From positions 2,792,001 through 2,856,000 of the forward strand of contig CM119371.1 of NCBI GenBank assembly GCA_051294905.1: a DNA stretch of 64,000 nucleotides, written 5' to 3'. Under the pieces are notes generated by a model, which had not been told where the DNA came from, ran no database searches, and was given only the letters and a program-made list of their open reading frames with translations. This document shows, piece by piece, positions 17,087 through 42,881 of the stretch. Position numbers and translations under genes: made by a program. The DNA comes from Botryllus schlosseri (taxonomy: Eukaryota). How positions within the stretch are numbered: the stretch's first letter is position 1; each line of letters begins with the position of its first letter.

Positions 17087-18275
17087 AGAAAATCAAATAG
17101 TGGAATGGGTCAAGCATGGCTCAACGTTGACGTTTACAGCAAACTTAAAACTATATATATTGTATAAGAAAATTAACTCTAGCCCACTTTTTCTATTCTA
17201 TACTCCGATAACTCCCGCAAACCATCCTCTTGAACAAACAGCTCTTCAATCAATTTGACAAATTTTGCATCGAAAAGGTCGCTGACATATTTCAGTGCTG
17301 CCAGGGTACGAACATTTTTGAAAGATAGACTGGAATCCTGTGAAAATCAAGTGTTGTTAGTTACGTCACAATCACCCAACAACATGACCTAAGATATAGC
17401 CTACGTCCAACCATAAGAGATTAATGTCACGACTCATGACTACTATGGACAAGGCGATGAGATCGCGTTATAAAAATATATCTTGCAAAACGAGTCGACT
17501 GAATTTGCACACATGAACCATGCAAACGCAACATGAATTATATTTACCGAGACTTTCGTGGAGTAAATAACACTCTCCATATCTATTTTGCTCGAAGCAT
17601 GACAGAATTCTGGTCCCTCCCAAAAAACAAAGCCTGAAGTTCTTTATGTTGGTTTCTCTCTCGGTCTATTATTGGAAGTACGCAATACTTTGTTTCATTG
17701 TATTGCAATCGCTTAGTTATTTGAATATAATTTTATTTATTTGAATTGAGAAAAATTAACTATTCGATTCCAACTCGCACTCATCTCACAAGTAGGGCAC
17801 GATATTGATGGTGTCAAGTACCGCTTACTGTCACATTAGTGTTTTACATAAATCAACGCAAAACTGTTTCCAGAATATACCTTGAACGCCCCCACCCCCA
17901 CCACAGAATTTTTCAGTAAACAGTTCAGAATAATAAAAAATATTGCTTGTCTGTTGAAAATTGCGAGAAAAAAACCGCAATCCTTCGATTTTTAATGGAT
18001 GTAATCTAAAATCCTGAATGTACTTGAAAATCAAAGTACAGTGCGACAATTTTTTTTATAAATTCAGTAGGCAAAAAACTCGTTACTTATAAAATCATCA
18101 CAAGTTGTTAGCTTACTATTCTCAACAAAAGCATCTCGTCCTCATGACGCTCATATTGACGTCATAATCTACATCCTGGCTATACTAGACCGCAGAGTCA
18201 TCGCTTCATGTGCCAAGTGTTGTTTACAGCTTGATGCATAGTAAAGTCAGTCAAATGATCGTAATTTCAGTCCAA

Positions 18276-19262: not shown

Positions 19263-19367
19263 TTCCCAATCCAATTTTCCAGATAGCGATTCAATCCGAT
19301 GATGCCCGAGAAATGAACGTAGCGCTGTTGCTGAGAAGTTGTTGTAACGCAAATCCACTTCCTTCAC
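19263..19367 (-). CDS. Module C LRR exon (VKEVDLRYNNFSATALRSFLGHHRIESLSGKLDWE)
   Basis: 105 nt, intact ttccag| and GAA|gtgagt, open frame; paralog of the A and B exons. Confidence 0.75.
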
Positions 19368-20210
19368 CTGGAACGATTGAAATATTTTATGAAACGTTGA
19401 AGAGAACTAAGTGTGAAAATAAGTATGAAATAAAGTGACAAAAATTAAATCACATGAGACGTAATCTATTTAGGTTACTGTCTGTGGATCTTCGATATAG
19501 CCTACATTACAATGCGATATCCTTAGATCATGCTATCGGTAATATCACATTCGCTGTCGGTTTGTACTTCCGGAACATGAGTCGTTTCCAAATATACATA
19601 ATTATAGAGCGCCCTATAGTCGATATGTAGTCCATTATCGCAGATACTATAGAAGTCCTCTTTGTGATTCAAATATGTGAAGCTCGTCACGAAACGTATC
19701 TTTTTTCGTGCATGGCGACAAGTCACACTTCTCGAGGGGATTATCGTTTTCGCGCATTCGATATCGTTTCTGCATCCGATAAATTCATACAGATCAAAAT
19801 CAAAATCATTCCATATTCCGACGGACGTACGATCAACTTATACACACGGCTCATCGTGGCGCTAGCGAGATTGCAATCAAATTGAACTAATTGCTTTCGG
19901 AATGGTATCGGAGTTAATGATGACTAGGGCGATTTTTTTACCTGAATAACGCGAGGATTTTGACCTGAAAAAATTTTTCAACTTAAAAAACTTAATTTCG
20001 ACAAAATATTGCCCTTATGTATGTAAATTAGGTGTTTTCGCACATATTTTCATAATTGTACTACTTATCGTCAGTTTTGGTTGGAGCTGTCTTCCTTACG
20101 AAGTAGTTTGACTCAACAACTGAAAATATTTTACAGGAAAAAACTTCATTTTAACGAAATCTGGACCTATGAAGAATTCCCAGTTACATGACGTATTATG
20201 ATAGAAATAA

Positions 20211-20485
20211 TTAAAATGTGTTGTTGTACATCCAAAGATACTCTCCTACATTCCCGCGTATAAAGTGTCTGTCCATACTAAGTAGCTTGTTAAGAATGAA
20301 GAAAGAACGTTCAACAGCAGCAGCTGGCAACACTGAAGTTGTGCGTACACTGCTGGTGAGAGAGCGTGTTGCTTCATTCTGACAATGTTGTCTACATCGC
20401 AATTTTTATTTTGTGCCCTTCTTGATATAAGAACCAAGGCCCACGCAGTCTTGCTTCCGTTAGGATATTGCGGTACGTTGAGCAT
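20211..20485 (-). pseudogene. hAT-like transposase C-terminal relic carried in each duplication unit (also 13650-13900 and 30690-30964)
   Basis: Frameshifted YAQLQCCQ / AAVERSFxILNKLLxxDRHF, resembling the hAT dimerisation motif. Confidence 0.6.
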
Positions 20486-22340
20486 AACACCATGTCAACC
20501 TATTTGTTTCATTTGACCGGTTATGATTGACAATGAGCAGACAATGGGCCGTCTACAATGGTAGGCCTACAAACTAGGCTACAAGATGTAAAATGATATG
20601 TTCACCGACAGTGCAAACATCTACGATACAAACGAATTGCAAAAAAATTCGAATTTGTAAACAACTTTGACAATTTTTATACCTGACGCTACAATTTTAA
20701 CAAAATATAAACCTTCTTTACAATGTCAAAAAATCGCCCTAATAGTCATAAAATATGTTGAATAGTCTTAAATGGTTGGTACAGTACTTCGGTACTGTCC
20801 ACCTCTGATGTAGATACCGAATAGCAGTACCAGAAACACAAGAGAAAACGAATTAGCACAGTCCGTTATTACTCACCCGAGCACTCACATCTGATACATC
20901 AGACACCATTGTCTTACAAAACTGATCGCTTGGATGAAAATTGATCGCGCGAGAAAACATAATCAGCATGGATCAACTGAAACCCGGACGTTCGACGACG
21001 CCGTATATTGTTACTTTTAATGTTATCGCTGTCAATATTACTGAATTTGGCTGGGCAGAAGTGACGAATGACACTGGTCAATAAAATGAAAAAAATATTT
21101 TTTGCAGGACATCTAAGAGTCATTTCTGGAGTTTTCAAGTTTACTGATTACGAATATCACAATAGTTTTTTTTTTCCCAGATTGACTCTAGTTCAGAAGA
21201 TATTTATACCCCGGGAAAAAAGCCCAAATTACTGTATTTTCCCCTTAAATATTTCACTTGTTAATAAGCAAATTGCAGCGTTTTTACCTTTATAATGCGC
21301 ATAAATAGAGAATAGACTATGAAGAACGCTCAATTCGTCCTCAGTTATTCATTCAATATGAGCATGACCTGCTGTGATATCTTTGTTTGTCAAAAGAAAG
21401 CAGTTTGTCAAGCCTAAAAATTTTACTTTTACACAACAGAACCTCTTGAGTAAGTAGTGCAAGTAAGCAGAATTTGTCTAAGTACTTCGGAAAAGTAGGT
21501 GGTTTATATGAAAATTCCACTTATAGAATGATGAAAACATAACGTTACCATACATTCTCCTTTTTGAGGTTTTTGAAAATGTCCTCCGAGTACGCTCTAT
21601 TTTGGCTGATAAATAGACTGGGGCTATACAGTTTTTACGGGTAGTTTAGCAGTTCCAAGCATGCGTATGCGGTATGATGCCTTTTTGCATGTTTATTTAC
21701 CTGTGTGGCTTATTCGTCCCTCCATTCAAAATATATGGCAACTTTCAAACAGCTATCAGAACGCAATGACGTAATATATGCCTCGTACTTCAAAAAATCA
21801 ACTTGACTTGGATTGTGACTTGAATCGTGACTTGACTTGACTTGACTCGAGTCACCTCGAAAAATCAAGTGACTTGACTTAATTCGAGTCAAAATGTGCA
21901 ATGACTCGAGATGACTCGTGACTCGAACGTAGTGACTTGAGCCCAAAACTGATAGGATTTTGAAAAGGCAAAAGTTGTTTTATGATACGCTTGCATGACT
22001 TTGATGCATGGAATCTTCATAAGAAATCGCCATTAACGTAACTGTTGAATCCATTTTTAATGATTGTTCCTACTTCGGACGCTACTAATCATTATGCATT
22101 ATTTGCGAAGCCACCCCTTGATATTTAAAAAGTAGCCACAACCGATAATCCGCCGAATATTTTCGGTCCCTCCACCGAAACTATTATCGGAACTACTTAC
22201 TTGACTACTTTTCCGACCTGTCGCTTGCTACTTCCACTTGAAGTAGTTTTACACGACTTGTAAGCATTTGATTTTACTTGTGATTGCACATTAGGGGTGT
22301 TCAATCGTACCGGTTACTTGATAAAATTGTTGGGTTACCT

Positions 22341-23838
22341 CAGGGGTTCTCAACTTCCCTTGTATAACGGGCCGCATTTTAACAGCAATTGACGCTGCGG
22401 GCCGCAGAAAAATATTTACATGTATTTGTGGGCTAATGTTAAATTTAGGCTAATGTAGCCTATTTACAAGTCGTATACGGCCATGTACTACGTTTTTATG
22501 CATTCTAAAGCATTAATGGACAGCGAGCGTAAGATTGCAGCTGCTGCTTGTTGTAAGACTATGTATCTTGCATTCGATACCAAGTCTGTATATTCAACTT
22601 CAAACCCTTCCAGCAGAGAACCGAACTCTCTGTTTCAATGCGTGAGACAGCAATTATACAATTGCGGTAACTTTTGCGTTACGGAGGCCATTATCAGTCT
22701 GGTGATCGGGGCCATTTCTGAGCAAACCAATCGGCCCTTTTTCTTTCCAACCAAGCCTTGGCCTTGCAGCAATAATTACAGTAGTCAGCTTTGTCAAGTT
22801 GGCATTTTTGCTAGTCCCCTCCCCACGTTTGCCCAGCCTGCATTTACTCTGCATATACGTCCACTCTGATAAAATTCAACCAGATAATTAGTTATATCGG
22901 CGGATTCGGCGGAGGCTGGGTTGTAGTCTACACGGCAACGTGTTTCAGAATATGCCCTAAAATACCGACTGACATTGATGTTTCTCGTCTGGTCAGTGGT
23001 CACGATTGAACAGACGACTGTATTTTCGCAATTCGTCAGGTGATGTTGTCCTTGCTACCAAGTTCCGGAAACCGCAAATATTTGCACAGAATGTTGAGGT
23101 TTTATGGAAATAACACCTTCTTTAGCAGATTTCTTGGGTTTAGCGATATTCCAGCCAATTTTGAACGATGCGTCTGTAACGTCGTCGGTAATCTTAACAA
23201 CTTTTCGCATTGAGTCTAACACTCTTTAAAAGTGTAGGCCTACTACGTTGCGGAATTCTCTTGAACTTAGAGTCCAGTCGAATACTGATTCAAAACAATA
23301 CCAATCTGAAGTCGAGAATATATCAAGAAGCGAGAACACATTAAAGCACTGGTTCTAAAACTATTTAAGACACGCCTCCGTTTTTGATAGGTAAAATTTA
23401 GTGCCCCTTCTCGTCATATAACAAAATGTAACCAGAATGCTAGCAACACAAACGGCTAGTCCGATGGCAAGGAAGGTTATGGCTGCTGATGAGAGAATTC
23501 TAAAATATGAAATTATGACTATACACCGAGAAATAACTAGGAAACGGAGATAAATTGCGCAGAGCGTAAATTTTTTTGTTCAGTTGACCGCAGCTTCGCA
23601 CCACCCCCCCCCACCCCCCCTCAGATGCTTTCAGGCTCCCAAGGGAGCGCATCCTCCAGTTTGAGAACCACTGCTTTCAAGAATGAGTAATCAAATGAAA
23701 GAGAGACAGTGCGATAAAAGAGCTAAGTATCTAAATTAATTTGTAAAAATACCGTGTCAGAAGTAATATTGCGTTTATAATGAAAGATGTCGCGGGTCGC
23801 AAAATGATCGTCTGCGGGCCGCGGGTTGAGAACCCCTG
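22341..23838 (-). mobile_element. Charlie-type hAT relic present only in the middle duplication unit
   Basis: Ends CAGGGGTTCTCAAC / GTTGAGAACCCCTG, TSD GGTTACCT; decayed transposase-like sequence on the minus strand; empty site at ~32775. Confidence 0.9.
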
Positions 23839-24509
23839 GGTTACCTAATTATATGCTATACACCAAATTTGACGCAATTCCAACCAGTGGCCGCATTGCT
23901 ACAAGAGAAAAAAATTTTGTATTTATTACATAAAAGATATTAAAAAATAAAAAATTTATGTTCACCCCATTATATTGTTAGATTTTGTACAGAAACGTTG
24001 CTCAGCAAAGTTGGCTCAATTCCAACCGGTAGAAGCGGAGTCATTGTAGGTGAAAAATTTGGATTTGAATAAAATAGTATTTGCGGTGGAAAGGTTATCA
24101 TTTTATTCATATCCATCCATCCTTCATGGGATTTTCAAAAGTAGAAAGTAGTTTTATGATACGTTTGTATCACTTTGATGTGTGAAATCGTCATATGAAA
24201 TCGAAATCACCATCAACGTAACGGTTGAATCTATTTTTCAAGATTGTTCCTACTAGTGACGCTTCCAATACTTTTGCGTTATTTCGAAACGTATGCACAA
24301 CCGATAAATTGCCAAATATTTGCGAACCATCGACTTGAAATACTTTTCGAAACTACTTACTCTTGAGTATTTTTCATGCCTTCCATATTCTACTGTCACT
24401 TGAAGGAGTTTTAACAAGTGTTTGAAAGAGTTAATTGTACTTGTAATTAGGTTAGAATTTGAACCAATGCTTCGACTTCGACTTGATCAGCAAGGCTGAC
24501 TACTTAGAC

Positions 24510-25719
24510 CAGTGGTTCCCTACCTTTTTCGGTGTCGGGGCCAAAGTTAGAATTTCCGTGGACGGTCGGGGCCACATGCATACCAGGGCAATAAAACAGA
24601 CACAAAATTGTCATCAAAATGGGAAAATTGGCATTGTTCCGATCAATTGTTCAACGACATTAGCAGTTGTTATGGTCATCGCGTTGCTGCGCTCACATTG
24701 TTCAGACAATCGACCTTTGATGGCTATTTAGGAGTAGTTTTATTGTCATGTCGAGATTTCAATTCCTATTTTTGGAATCAGTGCGACACTATCTTTCGAT
24801 AAAGACCGGACCTATCAAATTATTCGGACGCTTCGGTAGTGAGGAATAGGACTACCGAATATGCAGCTTTCGAGGCCGTTTATAGTGAGTAAGCATTTAC
24901 CGGGCGAAGCGTGGAAATTTTCTGTAATTCATGGTTGAATCGGTCAATATGACAGGGAATGCCATATATATATTGCTATCAATTTTTATCCTCTTTCTGC
25001 TCACGGGTACAGGGACGGGTGCTTACAGATAGAGCCGAGGGAGAGGTGTTTGGAAAGGTAGGATCCTCAATAATAATTAAATATCTTCGGGCGTATACCT
25101 ATTGGCAGGAACGAAACAGCAATTCGTCAGCCCCAGCCCCCCACAAAAAAAACTCGGGTTTTGGGCTCCCATAGGGTGATAAACCGACCCCTATCGCCTT
25201 GTTAGCTTTTGCTACGAAATGAGTTGTATTGTAGAGCGAGCCAGTGCGAGGCGCGAAAATTTTTGATTTGATTTTCATTCATAATCAAATCGCTCAATAT
25301 GGTCGGGAATTGCATATATTGGATGAGTACCCAAAATCAAGATAATTGGCAGCATGAAATCACGCCTAGAGCGACAATTTTTTGAAAAAGATGTATAAAT
25401 TTTCAAAAAATACTCAAATAATTTTGGGACCCCTTCGAGCTCGCCCCCCCCCCACCATTGGGGGGTTTGTAGTACCGCAGTTATTGTCCTATCTATAGCT
25501 ACTGCTCGTTCAACTGGAAAGTTGGGGCACATTGAATCGAAACAGCAGTGACGTAACGTTAGCAGTCTACTCACGACTGTCCTGCAATCCTAAATCCAAA
25601 TTAAAAACTCCAAGCCAAGCAAGTGCATTTTATTAATTTTATTTTTTGTCATAACTCGATTGCTTAATATTTTGGGGTCCGCAAGAAGGCTAGCTGGGGG
25701 CCGCGGTTGGGAATCACTG
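24510..25719. mobile_element. Non-autonomous hAT element, middle unit only
   Basis: Ends CAGTGGTTCCC / GGGAATCACTG, TSD ACTTAGAC; empty site at ~33355. Confidence 0.88.
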
Positions 25720-27346
25720 ACTTAGACCTCTTGTGCGTGAACTCGGGACTCGACTCGCAATATTTGAGACGCAAGTTGAGTAGACATTGGGAATAAAAGG
25801 TTTGAATTGATACCTGCGTCTTACTGCACTGCGCATTCTCTCGTTACTATAAGTATCAAATTCAAAATCTTATCCGCCTTTCGTATTAAATAGTCCTATC
25901 AAAACTAAGGCATTACTAAAACATCATATCCCCACTACTTACATTGCAACAGATACCTTAAACCCTCACATTAAATTGGGCACCTGTACACTTAACACCA
26001 AGAATTATTATAAATTCAAGCACGCACAATATGCGTACCGTTACTTATTTTTGTTTGATATTCAGATATTGATTGCTTGATTACCAACTGGCAGATACAG
26101 TCCAGATGAAAGTAGAAGAAAATCAAATAGTGGAATCGGTCAAGCATGACTCAACGTTACCGTTTACAGCAAACTTAAAACTATATAAATTGTATAAGAA
26201 AAATAACTGTAACCAACCTTTTCTATTCTATACTCTGATAACTCCCGCAAACCATTCTTTCGGACGACCAGGTTTTCAATCAATTTGACAAATTTTGCAT
26301 CAAAAAGGTCACTGACATATTTCAGTGCTGCCAGAGAAAGACCTTTTTTGAAAGATAGAGTGGAACCCTGTGAGGATAAAGTGTTGTCAGTTACGTCACA
26401 ATCTACTACCAACAAGCAAAAAGTTATACGTCCAAGCATGATGAATGAATAATGACTACGGCGGACAAGACGATGAGATCGCGTTATGGAAACATATCTT
26501 GAAAAACCAGTCGACTGAATTTGCACGCATGAACCACGAAACCGCTAAATGAATAATATTGACCGAGACTTTCGTGGAAATACATTACTCCCTCCATATC
26601 TATTTTGCTCGACGCATAACAAGAACCCTCCCCAAAAACAGCGTCTAAAGTTCTTCATCTTGGTCTCTCTCTCTCTCTCTCTCGCTCGCTCGCTCTCTTC
26701 GTCTCTTATTGGAAGTACGTAATACTTTGTTTTATTGTATTGCAATCGTGTGGTTATATGAATTAAATAAATTTTAATATGATTTTACGTACTTGAATTG
26801 AGAAAAATTAACTGTTCGATTCCAACTCGCACTCATTTTACTCGTAGGGCACGTTAAGGATGGTGTCAAGTATCGCTTACTGCCACAATAGTGTTTTACC
26901 GAAATCAAAGCAAAACTGTTTCCAGAATATACCTTGAACGCCCTCACCCCCACCACAGAATTTTTCAGTGAACAGTTCAGAATATTTAAAATGTATTGCC
27001 TGTCTGTTGAAAATTGCGAGAAAAAACCGCAATCCTTCGATTTTTATTGGATGTAATCTTAAATCCTGAATGTGCCTGAAAATCAAAGTACAGTGCCGAC
27101 AATATAAATTCAGCAGGCCAAAAACTCGTTAATTATAAAATCATCACAAGTGGTTAGCTTACTATTCTCAACAAAAGCATCTCGTCTTCATGACGCTCAT
27201 AGTTACGTCATAAGCTATAGACTGGCTATACCAGACGACAAAGCCATCGCTTCACGTACCTAGTATTGTTTAAAGCTTGATGCATAGTAAAGGCAGTAAA
27301 AGAGCGTAATTTCAGTCCGATTATTAGTATGGATTCGTTATCGAAG

Positions 27347-27457
27347 TTAAATCACCTTGATACAGAGGTGACCTTCAACCTTGTCACCACTTATCTTGAC
27401 CACATCTTCTTCGTTCTTCAGTTCAACATTCAATCCATCTACGGTCAGCTTGACAAC
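27347..27457 (-). CDS. Module B terminal exon (VVKLTVDGLNVELKNEEDVVKISGDKVEGHLCIKVI*)
   Basis: Same acceptor as A and C; a net 13-nt deletion shifts frame and gives an earlier TAA. AATAAA on the minus strand at 27043-27048. Confidence 0.6.
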   Translation of the reverse strand, partial: VVKLTVDGLNVELKNEEDVVKISGDKVEGHLCIKVI

Positions 27458-27579
27458 CTGAATATTGTTCACATGTGAAACTTGCGATCGCGCATTACAT
27501 CGATAATCCACCAAAGATTGTGACGTCGTATCGCAGATACACTGACGACCGCAACATCACAGATCATCATCCTCTATCT

Positions 27580-28690: not shown

Positions 28691-29707
28691 ATGCGTCATC
28701 GATCCGGGTCACTGATTTTACTGGTGTTTATGCTGGTGGTGGCATTTTGCGACATTTGCGACCCGATATCCCGAAAACACTCGCCTATATGAGGTAAGAG
28801 GTATATTGGCAGAATCAGGACAAAAAGTATACGGATTTAGACAAAGTTATTTTGGTCAATATAGTTGATCGTAAGCATCCGAAACCGTATTCCTGCATTT
28901 ACACGAATTGACGAGCGATTTTCGTCTTTTCAATCGGAACGCGAAATTGGACAGTTTGCTATTGTGAGCATATACTTATAACAAAATATTATTACAAAAT
29001 AATATGGACATCATAGTGACATCTAACATACGGAGCAAATAAAGAAATAAAGCCAAGAACGCTGTTATAATCAGCAAACAATTTCGCGACGCAATGCCAG
29101 ACCTCATTGTGTTGGCCTATTACTAATCAGATCCTCGCTTTCGTGATTAGGACTTATAATCATCAGTTGTGTACTAATTCATGTCGACATGCGCACTCAG
29201 GTATTGTTGCGATGATAGCAATGCCACTTCTTACTTACGTACGTCGTTTTGCAGTGGCACGCAGCGTTTGATTACCTAAAAGGGCCTTAGTTATTCAAAA
29301 TATCGATGCACGTATTCCGAATCAATTCAATTTCTTCAACCGGAGACCTGACGCGTTCCAATGAACTTGATTGCCAGAAAACTGAGCGGTATCTGACACA
29401 CCAATATCGAATTTCAAATAATTTGATTAATGAGGTCGTGACATGCGCTCAGGTGTCGTGTCGCTGCCCCTATTTCACTAAATTCGATTGCATGCTTCGG
29501 TATATATCAGACAGAGCGGATATTAACATGTCGAATAAGTGGTTAAATACTGTACATCTTTTGAATGGGATGTATACAAATGTGGTCTCGCTCGACTATG
29601 ACGTCAGCGATCATGAGCGATTGTAGCTTCGCAAGCATCCGCATACCAACATAAGATTACTTTTCGGTGTTTATGCTTGTTAGTAATAAATCCTAAATCG
29701 AACTCAC

Positions 29708-29812
29708 TTCCCAATCCAATTTTCCAGATAGCGATTCAATCCGACGATGCCCAAGAAATGAACGTAGCGCTGTTGCTGGGACTTTGTTGTTCCGCAAATC
29801 CAGTTTTTTCAC
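29708..29812 (-). CDS. Module B LRR exon (VKKLDLRNNKVPATALRSFLGHRRIESLSGKLDWE)
   Basis: 105 nt, intact ttccag| and GAA|gtgagt, open frame; paralog of the module A exon. Confidence 0.75.
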
Positions 29813-32800
29813 CTGGAACGATTGAAATATTTTATGAAACGTTGAAGAGAACCAAGTGTGAAAATAAGTATGAAATAAAGTGACAAACTAAAATCACCGA
29901 GCCGTAATCTATTTAGGTTACTGTCCGTGGATCCTCGACATAGCCTACATTACAACGCGATATTCGTAGATCATGCTATCGGTAATATCACATTCGCTGT
30001 CGTTTGTACTCCCGCAATATGAGTCATTTCAAAATATTCATAATTATAGAGCGCCTTATAGTCGATATGTAGTCCATTATCGCAGATAGGCCGACTATAG
30101 TAGTCCTATTCGTTATTCAAATATGTGAAGCTCGTCACGAAACGTATCTTTTTTTGTGCATGGCGACCAGTCACACTTCTCGAGGTGATTATCGTTTTCG
30201 CGCATTCGATATCGTTTCTACATCCGATTAATTCATACAGATCAAAATCAAAATCATTCCGTATTCCGACGGACGAACGATCAACTTATACAGACGGCTC
30301 ATCGTGGCGCAAGCGAGATTGCAATCGAATTGAACTAATTGCTTTCGGAATGGTGTCGGAATTAATGATGACTAGGGCGATTTTTTACCAGAATAACGCG
30401 AGGATTTTGACCGGAAAAATCAAAATTTTAACATTTTTCTTAACTTAAAAAACTTAATTTTGACCAAATATTGCCCTTATGTATGTAAATTAGGTGTTTT
30501 CGCACATATTGTTATAATTGTACTACTTATCGTCATTTTTAGTTTGAGCTGTCTTCCTTACGAAGTAGTTTGAACTGAAAGAAATTTTGTCTCCAAAACT
30601 GACAAATTTTTACTGGAAAAAACTTAATTTTAACTAAATCTGGACCTATGAAGAATTCCTAGTTACATCACGCATTATGATAGAAATAATTAAAGTGTGT
30701 TGTAGTACATCCAAAGATACTTTCCTACATTCCAGGGTATAAAGTGTCTGTCCATATCAAGTAGCTTGTCAAGAATGGAGAAAGAACGCTCAAAAGCAGC
30801 AGCTGGCAACACCGAAGTTGTGCGTACACTGCTGGTGAGAGAGCGTGTTGCATCATTCTGACAATGTTGTCTACATCGCAATTTTTATTTTGTGCCTTTC
30901 TGGATATAAGAACCAATGCCCACGCAGTCTTGCTTCCGTTAGGATATTGCGATACGTTGAGCATAACACCAAGTCAACCTATTTGTTTTATTTGACCGCT
31001 TATGATTGACAATGAGCAGACAATGGACCGTCTACAATGGTAGTTCTACATCTACGATACAAACGAATTGCAAATAAATTTTGAATTTGTAAACAACTTT
31101 GACAATTTTTATACCTAACGCTACAATTTTAACAAAAGATTGACCTTTTTTTCAATGTCAAAAATCGCCCTAATAGCCATTAATATGTTGAATAGTCTTG
31201 AATAATTGGCACAGTACTTCGGTACTGTCCACCTCTGATGTAGATACCGAATACCAGTACCAGCACCACAAGAGAAAACGAATTAGCACAGTCCGTTATT
31301 TCACACCCGAGCACTCACATCTGATACATGAGACACCATTGTCTTACAAAACTGATCGCTTGGATGAAATTTGATCACGCGAGAAAACATAATCAGCATG
31401 GATCAACTGAGACCCTGACGTTCGATGAAGCCGTATATTGTTACTATTAATGTTATCGCTGTCAATATTATTGAATTTGGCTGGGTAGAAGTGACGAATA
31501 ACACTGGTCAATAAAATGAAAAAGATATTTTTTGCCGGACATGTAAGAGTAATTTCTGGGGTTTTCAATCTTACTGATTACGAATATCAAATTCGTTTTT
31601 TCCAGATTGACTTTAGTTTAGAAAATACTTATACCCCTGAAAAAAAACAAATTACTGTATTTGCCCCCTAAATATTTCTTTTGGTTAAGTAAATCGCAGC
31701 ATTTCTACTTTTATACTGCCCATAAATAGAGAATAGACTATGAAGAACGCTCATGTCATCTTCAGTTATTCATTCAATATGAGCATGACCTGCTGTGAGA
31801 TCTTTGTCAGTAAAAAGAAAGCCGTTTGTCAAGCCTAGTAATTTTACTTTTGCACAATAGAACCTCTTGAGTAAGTAGTGCAAGTAAGCAAAATTTGTCT
31901 GAGTACTTCGGAAAAGTAGGTGGTCAATATGAAAATTCCACTTATAGAATGATGAAAACTTATCCCAATATAACGTTACGATACGTTCTCCTTTTTGAGG
32001 TTTTTGAAAATGTCCTCCGAGGACGCTCTATTTTGGCTGATAAATAGACTGGGGCTATACATTTTTTACAGGTATTTTAGCAGTTCCACGCATGCGTGTG
32101 CGGTATGACGGCCTTATTTAACTGTATGGCTTATTCGTCCCTCCATTCAAAATATATGGCAACTTTCAAACAGCTATCAGAATGCAATGACGTAATATAT
32201 GCCTCGTACTGCAAAAAATCAACTTGACTTGGATTGTGACTTGAATCGTGACTTGACTAGACTTGACTCGAGTCACCTCAAAAAATCAAGTGACTTGACT
32301 TGACTCGAGTCACCTTCAAAAATCGATTCACTGGACTTGATTCGAGTCAAAATATGCAATGACTCGAGATGACTCGAAGGTAGTCACTTGATCCCAACAC
32401 TGATATGATTTGAAAAGGTAAAAGTAGTTTCATGATACGCTTGTATGACTTTGATGAGTGAAATCTTCATGCGAAATCGCCATCAGCGTAACTGTTGAAT
32501 CCATTTTTCACGATTGTTCCTACTTGCGACGCTACTAATCATTATGCGTTGGACGCCTCTTGCAATTTAAAAAGTAGCCACAGCCGAAACTCCGCCGAAT
32601 ATTTGCGGTCCCTCCACCGAAACTATTTTCAGAATTACTTACTTGAGTACTTTTCCGATCTTTGGTTCGCTACTTCCACTTGAAGTAGTTATACAAGACT
32701 TGTAAGCAGTTGATTGTACTTGTGATTGCACATTAGGGGCGTTCAATCTTACAGGTTACTTGATAAAATTGTTACGTTACCTAATTAAAGGCTGAACACC

Positions 32801-34910
32801 AAATTTGGTTCAATTTTAACCAGTAGCCGCATTGCTACAAGAGAAGAAAGTTTTGTATTTATTATGTAAAAATATATAAAACAACCTAAATTTTCTGTTC
32901 ACCCCATTATATTGCTAGGTTTTGTGCAGAAACGTTGGTCAGCAAATTTGGCTCATTTACAACCAGTGGAAACAGAGTTATTGCAGTTGAAATATTTGGA
33001 TTGGAATAAAATAGTATTTACGGTGGCTAAGTTATCATTTAATTCATATGCAGCCATCCTTCATGGGATTTTGAAAAGTAGAATGTAGTTTTATGACACG
33101 TTTGAATCACTTTGATTTGTGAAATCGTCATAGGAAATCGAAATCGCCATCAACGTAACTGTTGAATCTACTTTTCAAGATTGTTGCAACTAATGACGCT
33201 ACTAATAATTTCGCGTTAGTCGCAGAGACTCTTCTTGAAATTTCGAAAAGTGGCCACATCCGATGGACTGCCAAATATTCGCTAAATCTACCTGTAATAG
33301 GGTACAAATTTACCCCAACCCTTCGACTTTGACTCGATTAGCCTAGGCTGACTACTTGACCACTTGTGCGTGCATTCGAGTCTCGGCTAAAAATATTTGA
33401 GACGCAAATTCAGTAGACATTGGGAATAAAAGTTTTAAGTTGAAACATGCTTCTTACTGCACTGCGCATTCTCTCGTCACTAAAATATCAATTTTAATAT
33501 CTTATCCGCCTTTCGTAGTAATTGGTCCAATTAACACCAAGGAATTAGTAAAACACCATATTCCGCACTACTTGCATTGCAACAGATGAATTATTATAAA
33601 TTCAAGCGCGCACAAAAATGCGTTCCATTACTTATTTTTGTTGGATATTCAGTTATTGATTGCTTGATTACCAACTGGCAGGTACAGTACCGATTAAAGT
33701 AAAAGAAAATCAAATAGTGGAATCGGTCAAGAATGAATCAACATTGACGTTTACAGCAAACTTAAAACTATATAAATTGTATAAGAAAAATAACTGTAAC
33801 CAACCTTTTCTATTCTATACTCTGATATCTTCCGCAAACCAACCTCTTGGGCGACCAGTTTTTCAATCAATTTGACAAATGTTGCATCGAAAAGGTCGCT
33901 GACATATTTCAATGCTACCGCGGAAACCGTTTTGAAAGATAGACTGGAATCCTGTGAAAATAAAATGTTGTCAACTACGTCACAATCATCCAACAACAAC
34001 CCTAAGATATACGTCCAAGCATGAGACATGAATCATGACTACTGCGGACAAGGCGATGGGATCGCGTTATCAAAACATATCTTGCGAAAAGAGCAGACTG
34101 AATTTGCCTGCATGAACCACGAATCCGTTACATGAATTATATTGACCTAGACATTCGTGGAAATATATTACTCCCTTCACATCTATTTTGCTCGAAGCAT
34201 AACAAGGACCCTCCCCAAAAACAGCTCTTCATCTTGGTCCCTCTCTCTCTCTCTCTCCCTCGCTCGCTCGTTCTCTCTGTCTCTTATTGGAAGTACGTAA
34301 TACTTTGTTTCATTGTATTGCAATCGTGTAGTTATATGAATTAAATAAATTTGAATATAATATAATTTTATATATTTGAATTGAGAAAAATTAATTATTT
34401 AATTCCAACTCGCACTCATCTCACTGGTAGGCACGATAATGATGGTGTCAGGTACCGCTTACTGCCACAATAGCGTTTTACATAAATCAAAGCAAAAATG
34501 CTTCCAGAATATACCTTGAACGCCCCCGCCACCACCACATAATATTTCGGTGAACAGTTCAGAATATTTGAAAAATATTGCTTGTCTGTTGAAAATTGCG
34601 ATAAAATAACTGCAATCCTTCGATTTTTAATGGATGTAATCGAAAATCCTGAATGTACTTGAAAATCAAAGTACAGTGCCGAATTTTTTTTTCTAACTGT
34701 ATGCAAAAATCTCGTTACTTAGAAAATCATCACAAGCTGTAATCTTACTATTCTTTACAAAAGCATCTCGTCCTCGTGACGCTCATAATGACGTCATAAG
34801 CTACAGACTGGCTATACTAGACATCAAAGTCATCGCTTCGTGTGCCAAGTGTTGTTTACAGCTTGATGCATAGTAAAGTCGCTAAAATGACTGCAATTTC
34901 AGTCCAATCA

Positions 34911-35057
34911 TTAGTATGGACTCGTTATCGAAGTTGAATCAACTTGATATCCAACCTTGAAGTCAAAGTGACCTTCAATCCCGTCACCACTTATCTTGAT
35001 GACATCTTCTTCGTTCTTCAATTCAACATCCCCACCATCTAGAGTCAGCTTGACAAC
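34911..35057 (-). CDS. Module A terminal exon (VVKLTLDGGDVELKNEEDVIKISGDGIEGHFDFKVGYQVDSTSITSPY*)
   Basis: attcag| phase-0 acceptor, 48 codons then TAA; ATTAAA on the minus strand at 34626-34631. Confidence 0.75.
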   Translation of the reverse strand, partial: VVKLTLDGGDVELKNEEDVIKISGDGIEGHFDFKVGYQVDSTSITSPY

Positions 35058-35513
35058 CTGAATATTGTTCACATGTGAAACTTTGAGATCGTGCATTGTA
35101 TCGCTATTCCACCAAATATCTTGACGTCATATCACACATATAGTGACGACCGCAGCATCATCGATCATCATCTGCTATACGTCATCGATACGGGTCACTG
35201 ATTTTACTGTCGTTTATTCTGGTGGTGGCCTTTTGCTACAATTGCGACCCGATATCCCCGAAAACACTCATTTATATGAGATAAGAATTATATTGGCGGA
35301 ATCAGTTATTTTGGTCAATATAGTTGATCGTAAGCACCCGGAACCGTATTCCTGCATCGACACGAATTCACGAGCGATTTTTATCTTTTTAATTGGAGCG
35401 CAAAATTGGACAGTTTGCTATTGTGGGCATGTACTTCAAAATAACATGAACATCATAGTGACTTCCATAATACAAGGGAAACAAAACACTGCAGTCCAAA
35501 ATGCTGTTATAAT

Positions 35514-35955
35514 TAGGGCTGGGCACAATGATTCGAGTGTTCGAATCTGAATCGAGTACTAATTTTAATGATTCAAGTCAAGAAGTAAAAGATGATTTTT
35601 AGGAGTAGGCCTACCGAAATCATGCATTCGTCGACACTGAAAGTTACTTATCAACGAGAATTTCAGTTTTGACAGTATTTCCCAGTTTGTAAGCCCTGGA
35701 ACCATGATTGGTCGCATAGCAGCATATGAAACATATTGTACAAAGCTATGAACGTTACTGGAATAACATATTTCCAAAGTCAGGATCATCTCACAACAAT
35801 GTCACAAACCGCAATGAAATCGGTATGTTATGAAAATTCCGAAGTATCAATAATGTGATGCATAACAACAGGCATTATATTATTTGTGGTGGCATAAAAG
35901 CTGAGTACGTGATTCAGAATCGAATCACTCAAATACTCGATCCTGCCTAGCCCTA
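35514..35955. mobile_element. TAGGGCTGGGCA-family MITE
   Basis: Same TIRs and internal sequence as 242-757 in reverse orientation; absent from the paralogous introns. Confidence 0.82.
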
Positions 35956-37903
35956 TAGTCAGGGTTGCCATACCGTCCTTATTTCTAAGATTTGTCCTTA
36001 TTTTGAAGGGTCAGGTCTTAAAAAACTCAACCGTCCTTATTTCTAAGAAATGTCCTTGTTTTCGAGTTGCGTCCTTATTTTGTCTTATTTTCAACAGCTA
36101 CAAAACTTCGATAGTTTTCCTCTGGTATCTGTGTTGCATGATATTCTAAAATTATGCTTTTGCATCCAGATTTTATAACATCATAAATGAAAGGAACTCC
36201 GTGGCGTACACACCGCAGTATTTGACTTCTAAGTGGTGAGATAGCTAGGACAGTGAGTGGCCGTATAGCAGTTTTGCCTGTACCAAGATATCGCAGTGGA
36301 CGTCATTTTAGCAGTAAAAAGCAGTATACTCTGTTTCTGCAGTTTAGTCTAGGCACAATAAGCTGTGGAGAAAGCATCATTTATTGCATAGTGAAAAAAG
36401 ACGCAGTGCAGTCGACAATTAGGTTAAAAAGTAGTACAGCTATAAATCAATCTAAATTATATTGCACGTATAGTTTTAGCTACTATTAAATCCTAATGTG
36501 ATTAGTTAAAATGAGCAAGCGTAAAAAAATTTTTTGTGACGATTATGGGAGAAAATTCAAGTGTATCAAACGAAGCTTGACGGGCGAGTGTTTCGCATAT
36601 TACAATATCTGCAATTGTGACAATAATCTGGAGGCCATAGGAAAGACCGCTATTTCAACTCACAGTGATACCACCAACACAAGTGTGTCATAATGATTGA
36701 TTCGAAGCAGTCAATGTATAATTTTTTTCACAAGTCGATCAGCACCAACGACCACAGACTACAAGGCAGCCGCTGCTGAGGGTAGCCTAACTGGGCATTC
36801 CATATTGTCAAACACTAGCAATCATTCTTAACCAACGATTGCACATCGCAACTGTTCAAAGCAATATTCCCCGATTCCAACATCGCAGAGAAGTTTGCTT
36901 GGGCCAGGACCAAGACTACAAGCAATGTTACTGGAGTTCTTGCTCCACCCGCTCAAAAAATGATTTCATGTCTGAAATTGGCGTACAGTAGCATACATGT
37001 ACAGCCGTTTTCCATCTCGGTCGACTCCGATAATCACAACGAGGTGAAGCTATTTCCTCTAGGCCCTTTTCATACCGGATTTACGAAACTCTTTCGGGAA
37101 CAAGTTCCGAAACAGGCGATGTTCACATAGAGAAAAAATTACCGGAACAGTTCCGGGAAAAGGACGCGTTCATACCTATTTAGAGTTACCGCGAACTTAT
37201 GTTCACACAGGTCGTGTTTTCGGTAAATTCGCGGGAAATTATGGCCAGTATGAACGCGATTCTCCGTAACTGTTGATAGTTACGAAACCATGTCTGTGGG
37301 GTGTTCCAGTTGTAATGTGCTTGTGGAAAACAATGTGGGAGAGGCATATACGTGAGATGCGGAGAAGTTGGCTCCAACTTTTAGCTATGGGATGTTGCGG
37401 ATATGCCTTCTCGAAGTGTATGGGACTCTATACTCAATATCCGTATCAGTAATAGAGCCCGAGTGTGTTCCTGACTTGTATATTATCAACCGAAGCTGAG
37501 AGCAGAAACTGAAAGCCAGCAAAGAGGATAGAGTCCTGGAATGAAAAGAACCACCGATCAGGCGATCACATCTGCGTACGAGGTACGACAAAGTCAGTTT
37601 ATCTTTGTGATTGCTGTATAATGGTTTGGGTAAATCTAATCTTATGTACACTGTACAGAGAAACCATGGAAATCGAGAAATTCGTGAGAGAAACATTTGG
37701 TATACTCTGCGACGAGCTTCGAGACCATAACGAAAAGCAGCAAGCAAATTACACGAACTCAATTTCTCTTGCTTGCTGAGTAGCTGTCGCTCTTTGGCGG
37801 CTAGCCAATGAAGCCAATCGTTTATAGATCCAGGTAAACATCAGATGTATTTTAAGAATGCAACTGTCACAAGTTGATTTTAATAAAAATTGCTGGTGCC
37901 TAG

Positions 37904-38409
37904 TAGGGCTAGCCACAGTGATTCGAATACTCGAATCTGAATCGAGTATTAACATTATTGATTCGAGGCGAGTAGTAAAATACTACTTTTCGAGTAGGCT
38001 ACTGAAATTATACTGAAAGTTGATTTACTAACGAGAATTATACCATAGTTTTGATAAACTTTACCACTGAGTAAGCCTTGAAACCTTGATTGGCCGTGTC
38101 GCAACATACGAGATATAGTGCAAAGCTACGAACGTTGCTGGAAATAACACATTTCCGAAGTCATGACCATCCCATATAACACTGTCAAGCAGTGCAATGA
38201 AAACGGTATGGTCGAAAAAACATTAAAGTATCTTTAATGTGACGGACAATAGGTGTTATGTTCTTTATGGTGGCATAAAAAGTAGCCTACACATTTGAAT
38301 TTTTGTCATGGTACATTGTGTTGTGATGTCATCATGATGATACTTGACTCGAAGCGTAATAAGTGATTCAGAATCGAATCACTCAGGTACTCAATTTTGC
38401 CCAGCCCTA
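37904..38409. mobile_element. TAGGGCTGGGCA-family MITE interrupting the Harbinger nuclease
   Basis: TAGGGCT...AGCCCTA ends; TSD gtgcctag/gtgcatag. Confidence 0.85.
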
Positions 38410-39001
38410 GTGCATAGTAATATTTCTATATTTGTCATGGCGGAATGTCAGCCAGTTTTTGCGTAGCATACCACTGCAAAAAGGTCAGACAAATTTGGTC
38501 TTGAATCATTATGTCAGAAAAAGAAGTCTGAAAGACCAATTGTTCTTGCCAAGTAGGCTACTTTCTGTCTCAAAAGTAAGACCCAAATTGATGGAAAATA
38601 GACTCAAATCTGGAAACTGAGCAGTCATCATAATGACTTGACTCGAGTCATAGAACCATGAATCGAACTCGGCGCTCTGCTCGATGAGTTGGACTCGGAT
38701 TTGACTCGGTGGTAAATTGAAAATGACTCGACTTGAATCTAGTCAAAACTATTAAAGTGGGATCGACTTGTGACTTGGTTACAGCCCTGCTCACTTATTT
38801 TAATGAGACCAAATTTGTATATTTTTGTAGTGTAGTCAGACATGTACAATGTACATCAACCTACTCATTTAGTTACTTTTAAGTAAGTAGTTCTAGTTAG
38901 GGATTTGAAAAAGTGAATAGTTTCTGGTTCCAGTTGCGGATATTTGAAAGTGAGTAGTTCCAGTTCTAATTGCAGATTTTGAAAATTTGATAGTTCTAGT
39001 T

Positions 39002-39674
39002 CAGGGCCGGCCAACCCGTGGCCCGCGAGTGAATTTTCGAAATTAGTAGTATTATCAAAAATGCATTGCACAGATTGTGTATTTGCAAGGCCAATCAAAA
39101 ATTTGATTAGTCTGGCCGCAACACTTGAGATGTGATGACTGAAATATCAGTTCCGACGCATTGGTAGATCTATGAGCCAGTCACATTTTGGTAGATCTTC
39201 GTACACTACAATAAAGCAGAATACTTTGAGATAGATTTATCAAAAGTAAAAATTTTCTACACGGTTAGCGCAACATGTTGTCACTCGATTTGTTGCTTTT
39301 AATATTGTTACCCCTTTGTGAAAATGAAAGAACGCCTAATGTATCAGATTGAGTCTAACAATATTCTCGGTTACAAGGCAAAGTGTCGTTGAACATATGC
39401 GACCTTGCGTTTGCGCTCTCAGAAAGACCGTCGACTTTGAAACCTAGGCTCAAAATGATTGCCGCATGTTGGACGAAGCTTTCGATATCGATATGTTCAG
39501 GTGCCGAATAGTCCAGTCCTTGCAAACTGAGCCCAGCGATATACACCAGCTTCCAATATAGTCCAGTGACAATATTATTAATTTATCACTTCAAAAAATG
39601 TTCGCGGCTAGTGGCCCGCAAAATAGTTCGTCAATCGAATGTGGCGATTTGGCTGAAAAGGTTGGCCACCCCTG
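39002..39674 (+). mobile_element. Charlie/Buster-type hAT deletion derivative nested in a MITE inside the Harbinger
   Basis: Ends CAGGGCCGGCCAACC / GGTTGGCCACCCCTG; 8-bp TSD TTCTAGTT. Confidence 0.85.
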
Positions 39675-42070
39675 TTCTAGTTGCTAGTTTAAAAAATTGA
39701 GTTCTAGTTAAAATTGCGCATTTTGGAATTCCAGTACTTTGTACAAGTCTGAGCGCTGTGGGTGGATAAAAAATTACCACAGCAACATTTGTACCAAACA
39801 TGCATTTGCTGCATTCAAGTTTTTCAGGATGACTTCATGATTGGGAGCCAGAGGGTTGCGTACTAGCCTACATAACTGATGACGCAGCCTATCCCATTCA
39901 GCCGCGGCTCATGAAGCCTTTTCCCTGAAACACAGAGCATAAGCTAAAGCTAGTTTCAAATATGTAATACAAATTTCCTTTCTGCTACCCTTAAAATTCA
40001 CAATTGCTTTTTCAGAAACTTAGCAAAGCACACTTGAAGGTTGAAAGATTTTGGTCGACTGAAGGCGCGGTGTTCGGCTTTGCTCAGAAACTGCAATCCA
40101 CTAAGGGCAGAATGATACAGAGGATGGTATACGCAATGAAGACAAGACCTGGTGGTGATCCAAGTATCGCTGGCCCAGACGTCGGAAATGCCCTGTGTGA
40201 CTTTCTCAATAAACAATGCTCCAGCTTAACCAGATGTGTTTGTGCTGTTTCATTTTATTCATGAGAGAAACTATAACTTAATGCACACTTGCACAGTTCC
40301 ACCTTTTTCATCAGTATCCTCCATCTAGACCTGCGAAAAGATCAGATTAAGTTACACTTGCCTAACATTGCATAACAAAGGAATGACTTGGTTGCAACAA
40401 GAAAATGAAGGCATAGGGTATAACCAAATTATGGCTTGGATGATGTACGATGGTTTACCAGCCCGTTGGTACAATTTCAATTTTGGTTAGTGATCCCGAG
40501 CTAGGGACATCATTCTCTGCTGCCACTATCAAGGCAGATGTTACTGAATCCCCTTTTCAGTAGGCGTATACCACGGTGACTAACCTACGCACAGCATATC
40601 CGTGGTTAGAAACTTGCCTTTGATGTAACAAATTTGGTAAGGGTTAAGATCACCTACCAAATTAGTGTTGAAGTCCTAAAGTTTTCAGGCAACTCACCCA
40701 ATACTGCATCATTTGGAGATGGTGTTCTACCTTTTTAGCCGTGCTGCTCTGTTTACAAAACCTCAGAAAAAAGAAGCTGACTAGTAGTCAGTGACTAGGT
40801 ATTGTGGGCTTACATAATATAAATCCAAGAATAATGCATTCCCAACACCATTACACAAGAAGACCAAAATGCCGCAGGTAGCTGACCTCGAAATACAAGC
40901 AGCCTGAATGAACAGCGCGTTACCGTAACTAAAAGTTTGATTGACAGCGTTCCGGGAACCCAGCTGCGCCATTCGTGTTCATACTCAGTCGGTCCCGTAA
41001 AAATCTCCGAAAATAAGCGCGTTCATACCGCCCCGAAACACCAGTGTTATGTTCACATAGAGGGGTTCCGGTAAACATTTTCGAGAAATGTTATTCCCGG
41101 AACCCCGGTATGAAAAGGGCCCTAGTTATCAGATTCTTTAACGTCAAAGGCTCGTATAAATCCAAAATATGCACAATAAAACGCATTTTAATGCTAATCT
41201 AATTTTCAACTGTCCTTATTTTTGGGTCAATATCGATGGCAACCCTGCCTATAGTTATGAACAGTGAGCAATTTCGCTATGCGATGTCAAACTCATTGTG
41301 TTGGCCTGAAAATCAGATACGCACTTTGTTGATTAGGAGTAGTAATATTCAGCTGCGCACTAATTCATGTCGACATGCACACTCCTGAATTTTGACAATG
41401 CTAGCAATTTTACTTGTTAATCGCGCAGTGCATTCTGCAGCGGAACACGGCGTTTGATTACGTGAATGTGACGTAATTTGTCAAAATATCGATGCACAAT
41501 TTGATCACCGCCAGACTGATCGATCACACCAATATGGAATTTTACTACATTGCATTCATTTGATTCATTGTCAATTTACTAGAGAGCGGATTTTTGTTGA
41601 CGAGGTCGTGACATTAGATCAGTGCTCTTATTGCTGCCTTACGCTACATAGTTAACTATTTCAGTGAATTGGATTACATAGCTCGATATTATTGAGACAG
41701 TGCTGATATTAAAACATCATATCAGTGGGTAAATACTGTACATCTCTGGGATGAATGCAGAGTAGGGCCGCTCAAAAAAATGTTCTTCAGATTCCACTGG
41801 CTATGTGATAAAATTGATAGGTTGGTTAAAACGACGCTATAAACCAAATTTGCCTTCAAGTCCAACCAGTAGAAGCGAGATACTTGCCATAGAAAGTTTT
41901 GAAATTATCATTAAAAAACACACAAATAAACCAAAATTTTCTGTCAACCCCATAAAATTGTTAGGCTATCAGTAGAGATGATGCATACCAAATTTGGCTA
42001 AATTCCAACCACTAGAAGCGAAGTTATTGCAGTAGAAAAATTTCCAATTCCATGATTTTATAGGAAATAA

Positions 42071-42305
42071 TTATAGCTTTCAATACAACATCCATTGTAG
42101 TACAATATTTAAACTCAAATACTTTCCGGCACTTTAAAGGGATTTAAATGGATTTAGAAGCAAAACCAAATCTGTTTAACTCCCTTCAGGGTGCCGTTAA
42201 CTCTTGAAATAGGCAACGAAAAAGTCTTTGAGTTTAATAAATATTCTACTACAATGGATATTGTATTGAAAGCTATATTCATGTTCTGTACCACGAACCA
42301 GCTAT
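42071..42305. mobile_element. Small fold-back made of the same Penelope-like 3' end, inside a MITE (~41763-42630)
   Basis: tatagctttcaatacaacatcc...ggatattgtattgaaagctata inverted arms; matches 16160-16300. Confidence 0.7.
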
Positions 42306-42776
42306 TTGATTAAATAATTAAAGAGTTAGCTACCGTAAAATTATTTTATTCGAATCCAGATTTTTTCTGCCGCAATAAATTCGCTTGTATTGGTTTGAAT
42401 TGAGCCACATTTGGTGTGTATCGTCTCTACTGACATCCCAACAATTTTATGTTGTTGACAGAAAAATTTCAAAATTTAATTTTTTAATGATAAATCCAAA
42501 ATTTTCTTTTTCAATAAAATCGCTTCTACAGGTTGCAATTGGCCCAAAGTTGGCTTGGAGCGTTGTTTTCACCAACCTAATAATTTTGTAACATAGCCGA
42601 AGAAATCGGAAGGTTTTTTGAACAGCCCTGATGTTGAAAATGTATATGTATAGTGCTTTCTATCACGACTATGACGTCACCAATCAAGTGCGATTGTCAT
42701 GTCACAAGTCTCCGCATACCCACATAAAATTATAGTGGCTTGTTAGTACGCAACTGAATCATAGAATCGATCTCAC

Positions 42777-42881
42777 TTCCCAATCCAATTTTCCAGATAG
42801 CGATTCAATCCGACGATGTCCGAGAAGTGAACGCATTGCTTTAGCTGAGAAATTATTGCGACGCAAATCCACTTTCTTCAC
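42777..42881 (-). CDS. Module A LRR exon (VKKVDLRRNNFSAKAMRSLLGHRRIESLSGKLDWE)
   Basis: 105 nt, phase 0-0, ttccag| and GAA|gtgaga; LxxLxLxxN-like motif continues in frame from ...KGIQ. Confidence 0.8.

Follow-up and report, generated by a model that had tools for sequence, protein, structure and literature searches.

Three paralogous exons in a Botryllus schlosseri locus raise the question of why members of a leucine-rich repeat (LRR) array should differ at some residues and be identical to the last nucleotide at others. The locus is a stretch of 64,000 nucleotides (nt), here called the window (GenBank assembly GCA_051294905.1, contig CM119371.1, positions 2,792,001 to 2,856,000), and the exons, each of 105 nt, lie on its minus strand. 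An initial annotation of the window had proposed that the differences cluster at and after a predicted exposed beta-strand because of diversifying selection on specificity, and that the remainder is a constrained or homogenised scaffold; it also implied that the exons serve different isoforms. The explanation that we favor, and that we consider as a whole to be fairly probable, is that the exons open three tandem two-exon modules in a single NACHT-LRR (NLR) gene, that the scaffold of these modules is homogenised, and that one residue, position 8, is diversifying.

Variation among the three exons and their genomic copies

The exons were named X_A, X_B and X_C and are described throughout in window coordinates, with minus-strand exon limits (Table 1). 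The four peptides quoted in the initial annotation were all found in place on the minus strand: VKKVDLRRNNFS at 42846-42881 in X_C, VKKLDLRNNKVP at 29777-29812 in X_B, VKEVDLRYNNFS at 19332-19367 in X_A, and RIESLSGKLDWE at 42777-42812, 29708-29743 and 19263-19298. Every X unit has the borders ag/GTG...GAA/gtgag, and the three exons are equal in length with strong and similar splice sites. They differ at 19 nucleotide sites, all inside nt 6-68, and the final 36 nt, that is, the last 12 codons, are the same in all three, as had been noted. Under an even spread of the 19 sites, zero differences in the last 36 nt has a probability of 3.4e-4, and the proposed clustering is therefore real and beyond chance. 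The variable residues are 3, 4, 8, 10, 11, 12, 14, 16, 19 and 23. Position 8, immediately before the conserved Asn, is R, N or Y as originally read, and its codons are given in Table 1.

For the 157-nt X_C region, the 495-Mb assembly yielded no fewer than 101 candidate copies; the 40 that were scored were 86-100% identical. A 38-nt pattern consisting of the exon end plus GTGAG, with no more than 3 mismatches, gave 71 matches in the genome and 0 in a reversed control, and all 71 sequences were retrieved. Intact copies, with an open frame, AG and GT, made up 67 of the 71; the damaged ones carried a stop (L024), a frameshift (L056), an AT acceptor (L057) or a deletion with a lost acceptor (L046).

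Among these copies, residues V1 (67/71), V4 (64/71), L6 (67/71) and N9 (69/70) were conserved, and position 11 was hydrophobic (F, I, V or L) in 71/71. The pattern agrees with the LRR consensus LxxLxLxxN/CxL, and the variable positions 3, 5, 7, 8 and 10 correspond to the x positions of LxxLxLxxNxL. In LRR structures, the x residues of LxxLxLxx are exposed to solvent on the concave side. When a profile of 68 X peptides was compared with the PDB, the top three matches were the human NLRP1 LRR-domain crystal sequences 4im6, 5y3s and 8zgd (E values of 0.015 to 0.017), with X1-19 aligned to LKELDLSGNSLSHSAVKSL of that domain. From this LRR register, not from a structure, we infer that the variable residues are exposed. 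Other results were less favorable to the assignment: Pfam gave no match at E<=10 for single X or Y exons (Y being the second exon of each module), alignment of X with the LRR region of the ascidian Styela clava by hhalign was weak (E value of 0.12), and the AlphaFold model of the 35-residue X exon (68 rows) was of low confidence, with a predicted local distance difference test score (pLDDT) of 61.8 and only a helix at residues 13-22. By profile, LRR membership is marginal.

Residue 8 changes faster than neutral intron sites

Codon 8 was the most variable residue among the 71 copies, with 15 amino acids encoded by 19 codons. In the 30 closest copies, nucleotide diversity (pi) at codon 8 was 0.708, 0.687 and 0.067 at positions 1, 2 and 3, respectively. 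The mean pi over 421 intron sites of the same copies was 0.184 and the maximum was 0.616, so that none of the 421 was as diverse as position 1 or 2. Changes were counted by Fitch parsimony on a neighbor-joining tree. Over all 71 copies, the intron sites (n = 367) showed a mean of 9.86 changes and a maximum of 19-20, and codon 8 showed 21-23, 26-30 and 7 changes at positions 1, 2 and 3. The counting estimate for this codon was 50.2 replacement and 3.8 silent changes. Per replacement site this amounts to 21.8 replacement changes, a value 2.2-fold the rate of the introns and 3.7-fold that of synonymous changes in the exon (binomial p of 0.0023). Codon 7, which is rich in CpG, reached 1.5 times the intron rate; codons 10, 3, 24, 14 and 5 were near neutral (0.7 to 1.1 times the intron rate), and most others ranged from 0.0 to 0.5 times. 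The replacement excess is thus specific to one site, where it outpaces neutral intron sites as would be expected of a contact residue selected to diversify. We regard this reading of codon 8 as fairly probable, jointly with the rest of the explanation. Position 8, the x before the Asn of LxxLxLxxN, turns over above the neutral intron rate on a homogenised background, with positions 7, 10, 3 and 5 evolving at about the neutral rate. Strong conservation is seen at the hydrophobic core and in the last third of the exon, toward its 3' end. Position 8 may lie at the edge of the concave binding face, where diversifying selection would tune ligand specificity.

Several observations weigh against selection at this codon. 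Taken by themselves, the three exons of the window showed no replacement excess, the ratio of replacement to silent differences per site (pN/pS) being 0.75 for A-B, 0.42 for A-C and 0.41 for B-C. The divergence between exons X_A and X_B, 10/105 (9.5%), was close to that of their flanking introns (about 9.8-12.3%), an equality that the initial annotation had set in advance as evidence against its own proposal and that holds here for the A-B pair. Diversifying selection is therefore seen at the level of the family, at codon 8, and not in the three exons alone, where it had been proposed. In the full 71-copy set, 55/367 and 3/367 intron sites reached the pi of codon 8 at positions 1 and 2, ranks that are less extreme because deep clades inflate intron pi. 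Recombination makes the parsimony counts too high, as illustrated by codon 16 position 3 (window 42834, 29765 and 19320). There the 30 close copies carry one of two silent alleles, G (18) or A (11), apart from a single T, and 9 changes were required on the 30-copy tree, which points to recombination or gene conversion inside the exon. The X copies compared are also paralogs from one assembly, neither alleles nor orthologs.

The hypervariability of codon 8 might instead be mutational or recombinational, produced by CpG decay and a local hot spot, with the variants then shuffled by gene conversion. CpG is indeed present, codons 7-8 being CGT CGC in several copies, and intron CpG sites changed more than average (mean of 12.95 versus 9.86), with the inflation of homoplasy by recombination adding to the count. 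However, all four bases occur at both replacement positions, with many transversions, and position 3 of the codon is C in 63/70 aligned copies (one of the 71 is gapped there). The 20 intron CpG sites showed at most 19 changes, compared with 26-30 at codon 8 position 2, and pi, which is robust to recombination, placed codon 8 above all 421 intron sites in the close copies. We therefore consider a mutational or recombinational origin improbable.

Low diversity at the 3' end of X and a 3' block probably exchanged or homogenised between genes

The scaffold had been described as constrained or homogenised, and evidence for both was obtained. In 32 copies, diversity fell from about 0.23 in the introns to 0.03 in exon nt 80-105 and was 0.06-0.15 over about 80 nt of the downstream intron, so that both the last 40 nt of the exon and the roughly 80 nt of intron after it hold much less diversity than introns elsewhere. 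Third codon positions had a pi of 0.115 in codons 24-35 versus 0.245 in codons 1-23, and the silent sites of the last 12 X codons were likewise conserved. The intron segment that follows each X exon (Table 1) is kept across the family, with TACTAAC about 30 nt past the donor and TATGCGGAGACTTGTGACGTGAC further on. A consensus RNA structure was sought for the conserved exon end and intron, and RNAalifold gave 0 pairs; Rfam gave 0 matches in the window. The low diversity could be caused by splicing signals or by a conversion hot spot.

In 22 pairs of genes with both an X and a NACHT region, nucleotide identity of the X region (87-97%) was uncorrelated with amino acid identity of the NACHT domain (50-96%; Spearman coefficient of -0.14, p of 0.53). 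Paralogs with 51% NACHT identity were nevertheless 86-90% identical to the window in nucleotide sequence from about 0.9 kb past exon 2 to the window's start, introns included. This uncoupling, together with identity at the intron level downstream of exon 2, suggests that the 3' block has been exchanged or homogenised between genes, as in concerted evolution. Exons of the Y_C type were 97-99% identical in four genes (Table 1), whereas the adjoining X exons were only about 87-92% alike, indicating that homogenisation is patchy and that X diverges faster than its partner. In the proposed mechanism, the 3' blocks of a very large family would be kept alike through unequal crossing-over or gene conversion.

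The size of the family is evident from the NACHT exon, for which at least 218 candidates were found, all 87 of those scored having E<=1.8e-119. Alternation of X and Y exons was seen at four or more further loci (C1 0.51-0.53 Mb, 1.94-1.95 Mb and 2.27-2.28 Mb; C4 15.16-15.20 Mb), and the number of modules ranged from 1 to 3 among genes of the family: two are present in the recent, 95%-identical duplicate at C1:2.28 Mb, and one in each of two other paralogs. In a neighbor-joining tree built from the exon and 300-nt flanks, C fell in a tight clade of C1 copies, and A and B stood beside second-module copies of other genes (L067, L048, L049 and L043). This grouping indicates that the extra modules are older than several gene duplications and have been retained.

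The exons belong to tandem two-exon modules of an NLR gene

Upstream of the X exons, a NACHT domain was identified in a 515-codon open frame at 48827-50374 on the minus strand (Pfam E value of 1.7e-13; NOD2_WH E value of 1.3e-4). Among named proteins, it most resembles ascidian NLRs, from Styela clava (34-35% identity) and Clavelina lepadiformis (26-29%). The best NACHT match in the protein collection, from which proteins of this species seem to be missing, was 49-50% identical. Exon 2 aligned with the Styela clava NLRs (tblastn E value of 1.6e-11). Searches with the repeat itself returned less: the X_C protein search gave a single relevant match, a 194-residue read-through open reading frame (ORF) of another species with 71% identity, in which the repeat has no spliced context; X extended by 5 codons gave no homologue as a protein query; and when the C-terminal regions of the Styela proteins were compared with the window by tblastn, no downstream exon was found at E<0.4 except X itself. 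Pfam found no LRR or effector domain in the X, Y, exon 2 and Z2 ORFs or in the upstream minus-strand ORFs.

Comparison with a distant paralog exposed a paralogous Y partner downstream of each X exon, which the initial annotation had not mentioned. Each repeated module therefore comprises an X exon of 105 nt and a Y exon of 147-150 nt. The two are in phase 0-0 and jointly encode 84-85 residues, and three such modules lie in tandem in the 3' half of the gene, which codes for the LRRs. The tandem unit spans about 7-10 kb; A and B are 88-90% identical across kilobases of intron, and unit C resembles unit A over 158 nt only, comprising the exon and near flanks. Exon 2 ends with ...EKGIQ in phase 0, in frame with VKKVDL of X_C. 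Downstream of all modules, the predicted exon Z2, 90-93% identical across three paralogs, reads LDLLDIAVNGL..., again of the form LxxLxLxxNxL. The order NACHT exon, exon 2, X_C-Y_C, X_B-Y_B, X_A-Y_A and Z2, in one NACHT-LRR gene of the sea-squirt type, forms part of the explanation that we consider fairly probable.

Table 1. Coordinates of the NLR exons and conserved elements (window coordinates unless marked C1)
Feature	Position	Strand	Description
NACHT exon	48898..50340	-	3' end 48898 from RNA joint; 5' end a putative acceptor, ttttgcag/AAAAAG, read from sequence
Exon 2	46762..47066	-	305 nt; linker and first LRR-like stretch; ends ...SLEKGIQ, phase 0; two RNA joints
X_C	42777-42881	-	105-nt LRR exon, module 1 (VKKVDLRRNNFS...); codon 8 at 42858-42860, CGC, Arg; spliced to exon 2 in run X1 contig
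Y_C	33805..33951	-	147-nt second exon, module 1 (DSSLSFKTVSAVALKYVSDLF...EYRIEK); phase 0-0; ag/gt sites
X_B	29708-29812	-	105-nt LRR exon, module 2; codon 8 at 29789-29791, AAC, Asn; frame and ag/gt sites intact
Y_B	26218..26367	-	150-nt second exon, module 2; phase 0-0; frame and ag/gt intact
X_A	19263-19367	-	105-nt LRR exon, module 3; codon 8 at 19344-19346, TAC, Tyr
Y_A	17188..17337	-	150-nt second exon, module 3; phase 0-0; donor AAA/gtgggc
Z2	11433..11600	-	Predicted 168-nt phase 0-0 LRR exon (LDLLDIAVNGLIPVQDY...); single-copy, downstream of all modules
Conserved intron segment	42687-42776 (after X_C), 29618-29707 (after X_B), 19173-19262 (after X_A)	-	GTGAGATCGATTCTATGATT...TACTAAC...TATGCGGAG
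Y_C-type exons compared	C1:1943123-1949518, 2272145-2278536, 527143-527289; window 33805-33951		

Two further elements were considered at the 3' end of the array. Z1 (13085-13190, minus strand) was rejected as the next exon, because paralogs differ there by indels of 1 nt and 11 nt and because phase 0 runs into a stop at once; it appears as a non-coding element that is 93-97% identical in two paralogs despite the indels, with GTAAGT at its end. A fourth X copy was looked for near 12.6k and was not found. A partial fourth copy of the upstream-intron part of the module is present at 13264-16164 (87-92% identical to 19873-21595), without an X exon, and adjoins a 132-codon ORF at 16464-16862 that has no Pfam match.

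Transcript evidence and use of the modules

Reads were mapped on 29600-49599, a segment with X_B and X_C inside and X_A outside. The contigs of run X1 are presumed to be RNA, and two raw-read runs gave almost no depth on the NLR gene. The run X1 contigs contained the joints 48898>47066 and 46762>42881, which read CT..AC on the plus strand and hence GT..AG for a minus-strand gene, demonstrating that NACHT exon, exon 2 and X_C form a real spliced transcript. NACHT thus lies in the same transcript as the repeats and upstream of them. A 211-nt piece of a run X1 contig covered 33803-33950 only, with a depth of 5.7 that accounts for the entire depth of the bin, indicating that Y_C is a spliced exon without intron cover. 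This contig runs two bases (GT) past the exon, an overrun that fits a following X-type exon better than Z2 and is a weak hint of such an exon after Y_C. No joint to X_B, Y_B or X_A was among those listed for the mapped segment, X_A lying outside it. This counts against serial use of modules 2 and 3, which is therefore inferred; the lack of a listed X_B joint says nothing about the use of modules B or A. If all three modules were spliced in series, one protein would carry R, N and Y at three equivalent positions.

The implied reading that the X exons are alternative isoform exons did not find support, given that they open three tandem two-exon modules, and splicing of these modules in series is more likely. 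The modules themselves might still be alternative cassettes, mutually exclusive or variably skipped, giving isoforms that differ in their specificity residues. Such an arrangement is compatible with the phase of X, Y and Z2, all 0-0 so that any combination stays in frame, and with the equal lengths and strong, similar splice sites of the X exons; a conserved intron element follows every X, and the homologous Styela clava NLRs carry the corresponding segment once. Against it, the repeated unit is a two-exon module and not a single exon, and single-module paralogs share the conserved intron element, which is therefore not specific to arrays. Competing docking/selector RNA pairing was not detected: the longest complementarity between the intron element and the pre-mRNA was 11-13 nt, compared with 12-13 nt in shuffled controls, and RNAalifold gave the 0 pairs noted above. 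The GT overrun of the Y_C contig also points, weakly, to an X-type exon next and not to Z2. Alternative cassettes are in our view unlikely. A broader version, in which a germline NLR repertoire of dozens to more than 200 genes uses one LRR surface residue on a homogenised, modular scaffold as its main specificity switch and, in genes with two or three modules, the modules as alternative cassettes, seems quite unlikely; if true, one locus would show several specificities (R, N or Y), a Dscam-like or variable lymphocyte receptor (VLR)-like combinatorial layer in an intracellular receptor.

It was also considered that modules B and A are recent, unused duplicates that drift neutrally, with the clustering of differences reflecting a relaxed 5' half and conservation of splice signals. 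The agreement between A-B exon and flanking divergence given above fits this idea, as do the A-B pN/pS, which rises from 0.75 overall to 0.90 in codons 1-14, the pN/pS of the Y pairs (0.51-0.98), the lack of RNA evidence seen for B or A (X_A being outside the mapped segment) and the visible damage in 4/71 family copies. However, frame, AG and GT are kept in X_A, X_B, Y_A and Y_B, and A and B have 2 differences in the 3' 71 nt, compared with about 7 expected at the intron rate. B-type second-module copies are intact in three other genes, indicating retention after gene duplication, and Z2, the only downstream terminal LRR exon, lies beyond all modules, so that the transcript must cross them. 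Disuse of modules B and A is accordingly an unlikely account, and serial modules in a single receptor gene remain the explanation that we favor.

Other features of the window

Upstream of the NLR gene and on the opposite strand, ORFs of a ZSWIM1/3-type MULE transposase-like gene were found at 58626-61936 (plus strand), with matches to ZSWIM3_N (E value of 2.3e-11), ZSWIM1-3 RNaseH-like (2.3e-39), MULE (3.3e-17) and PHD finger (7e-5). A near-perfect tandem duplication, in which 266 nt occur twice with 99.6% identity, lies at 48240-48770 in the intron that separates the NACHT exon from exon 2. In the intron between exon 2 and X_C, a short, strongly expressed element at 44914-45250 had no Rfam match; hundreds of raw reads start at 44914/44917, their loose ends carrying template-switch-oligo letters, and depth rose to about 100 in runs X22 and X24. 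Spliced transcripts unrelated to the NLR exons were observed at 37580-41100, with joints 37830>40013 (GT..AG, plus strand) and 40328>40696 (CT..AC) and a poly-T loose end at 40239. They lie within a 5.3-kb segment (35959-41248) that is missing from the 95%-identical paralog at C1:2.28 Mb.

Comparison with known recognition systems

Systems of this kind, in which an expanded NLR family has a hypervariable position on the LRR surface, are already known. A description of such a family in tunicates was not found in the literature, with subscription journals outside the coverage. Tunicates are the sister group of vertebrates and, to our knowledge, are without antibody-type adaptive immunity; a very large NLR family would be a concrete candidate for the germline encoding of their recognition diversity, and position 8 offers a specific residue for binding or swap experiments. 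The LRR domains of plant NLRs (R-gene products) carry hypervariable solvent-exposed xxLxLxx residues. They resemble the present family in being expanded and clustered, in the concentration of replacement changes at the x residues of the beta-strand motif, and in undergoing unequal crossing-over and gene conversion within clusters. They differ in having NB-ARC where the animal gene has NACHT, and the clear excess here is at essentially one codon of one LRR and not over many repeats.

Dscam-type mutually exclusive exons are likewise tandem paralogous exons of equal length and phase that differ on a recognition surface. In contrast, the unit here is a two-exon module, and no docking/selector complementarity was found in it. 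The human NLRP1 LRR domain (4im6, 5y3s and 8zgd) is the best match of solved structure and has the same register, LKELDLSGNSLS versus VKEVDLRxNxFS, but the E value is only 0.015-0.017 over 19 residues, and NLRP1 is neither an orthologue nor a member of a hypervariable family. Closer relatives are the Styela clava NLRs P0032-P0036 (named NLRC5-like, NLRP4C-like and others by NCBI), which are 34-35% identical in the NACHT domain, can be aligned over exon 2 and have a variable number (2-6) of tandem repeat units in a C-terminal LRR region. In these proteins, however, the X-homologous segment occurs once, and their repeat is a 56-residue unit of different sequence.

The zebrafish NLR-B30.2 (NLR-C) family is described as having positive selection in the B30.2 domain, with the LRRs considered unlikely recognition modules (PMC4852459). 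It is similar in that its NLR genes number in the hundreds and lie mainly on a single chromosome arm, and in the different gene conversion of NACHT and C-terminal parts; it differs in that the signal here is in an LRR exon and that no B30.2 was found here. The fungal HNWD/NWD (het-d and het-e) STAND proteins have WD40 repeats in concerted evolution with four positively selected surface positions (PMC1805685). The contrasts are WD40 there versus LRR here, a two-exon module with kilobase-long introns here and the lack of repeat-induced point mutation (RIP) here, and any role in allorecognition would be hypothetical here. The likenesses are a NACHT-type STAND family, repeat units that move both inside a gene and from one gene to another, differences in repeat number, and a few hypervariable surface positions on an otherwise homogenised repeat. 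Modular, exchangeable LRR units with one residue that changes faster than neutral would thus place this tunicate family in a pattern seen both in plant NLRs and in fungal STAND proteins.

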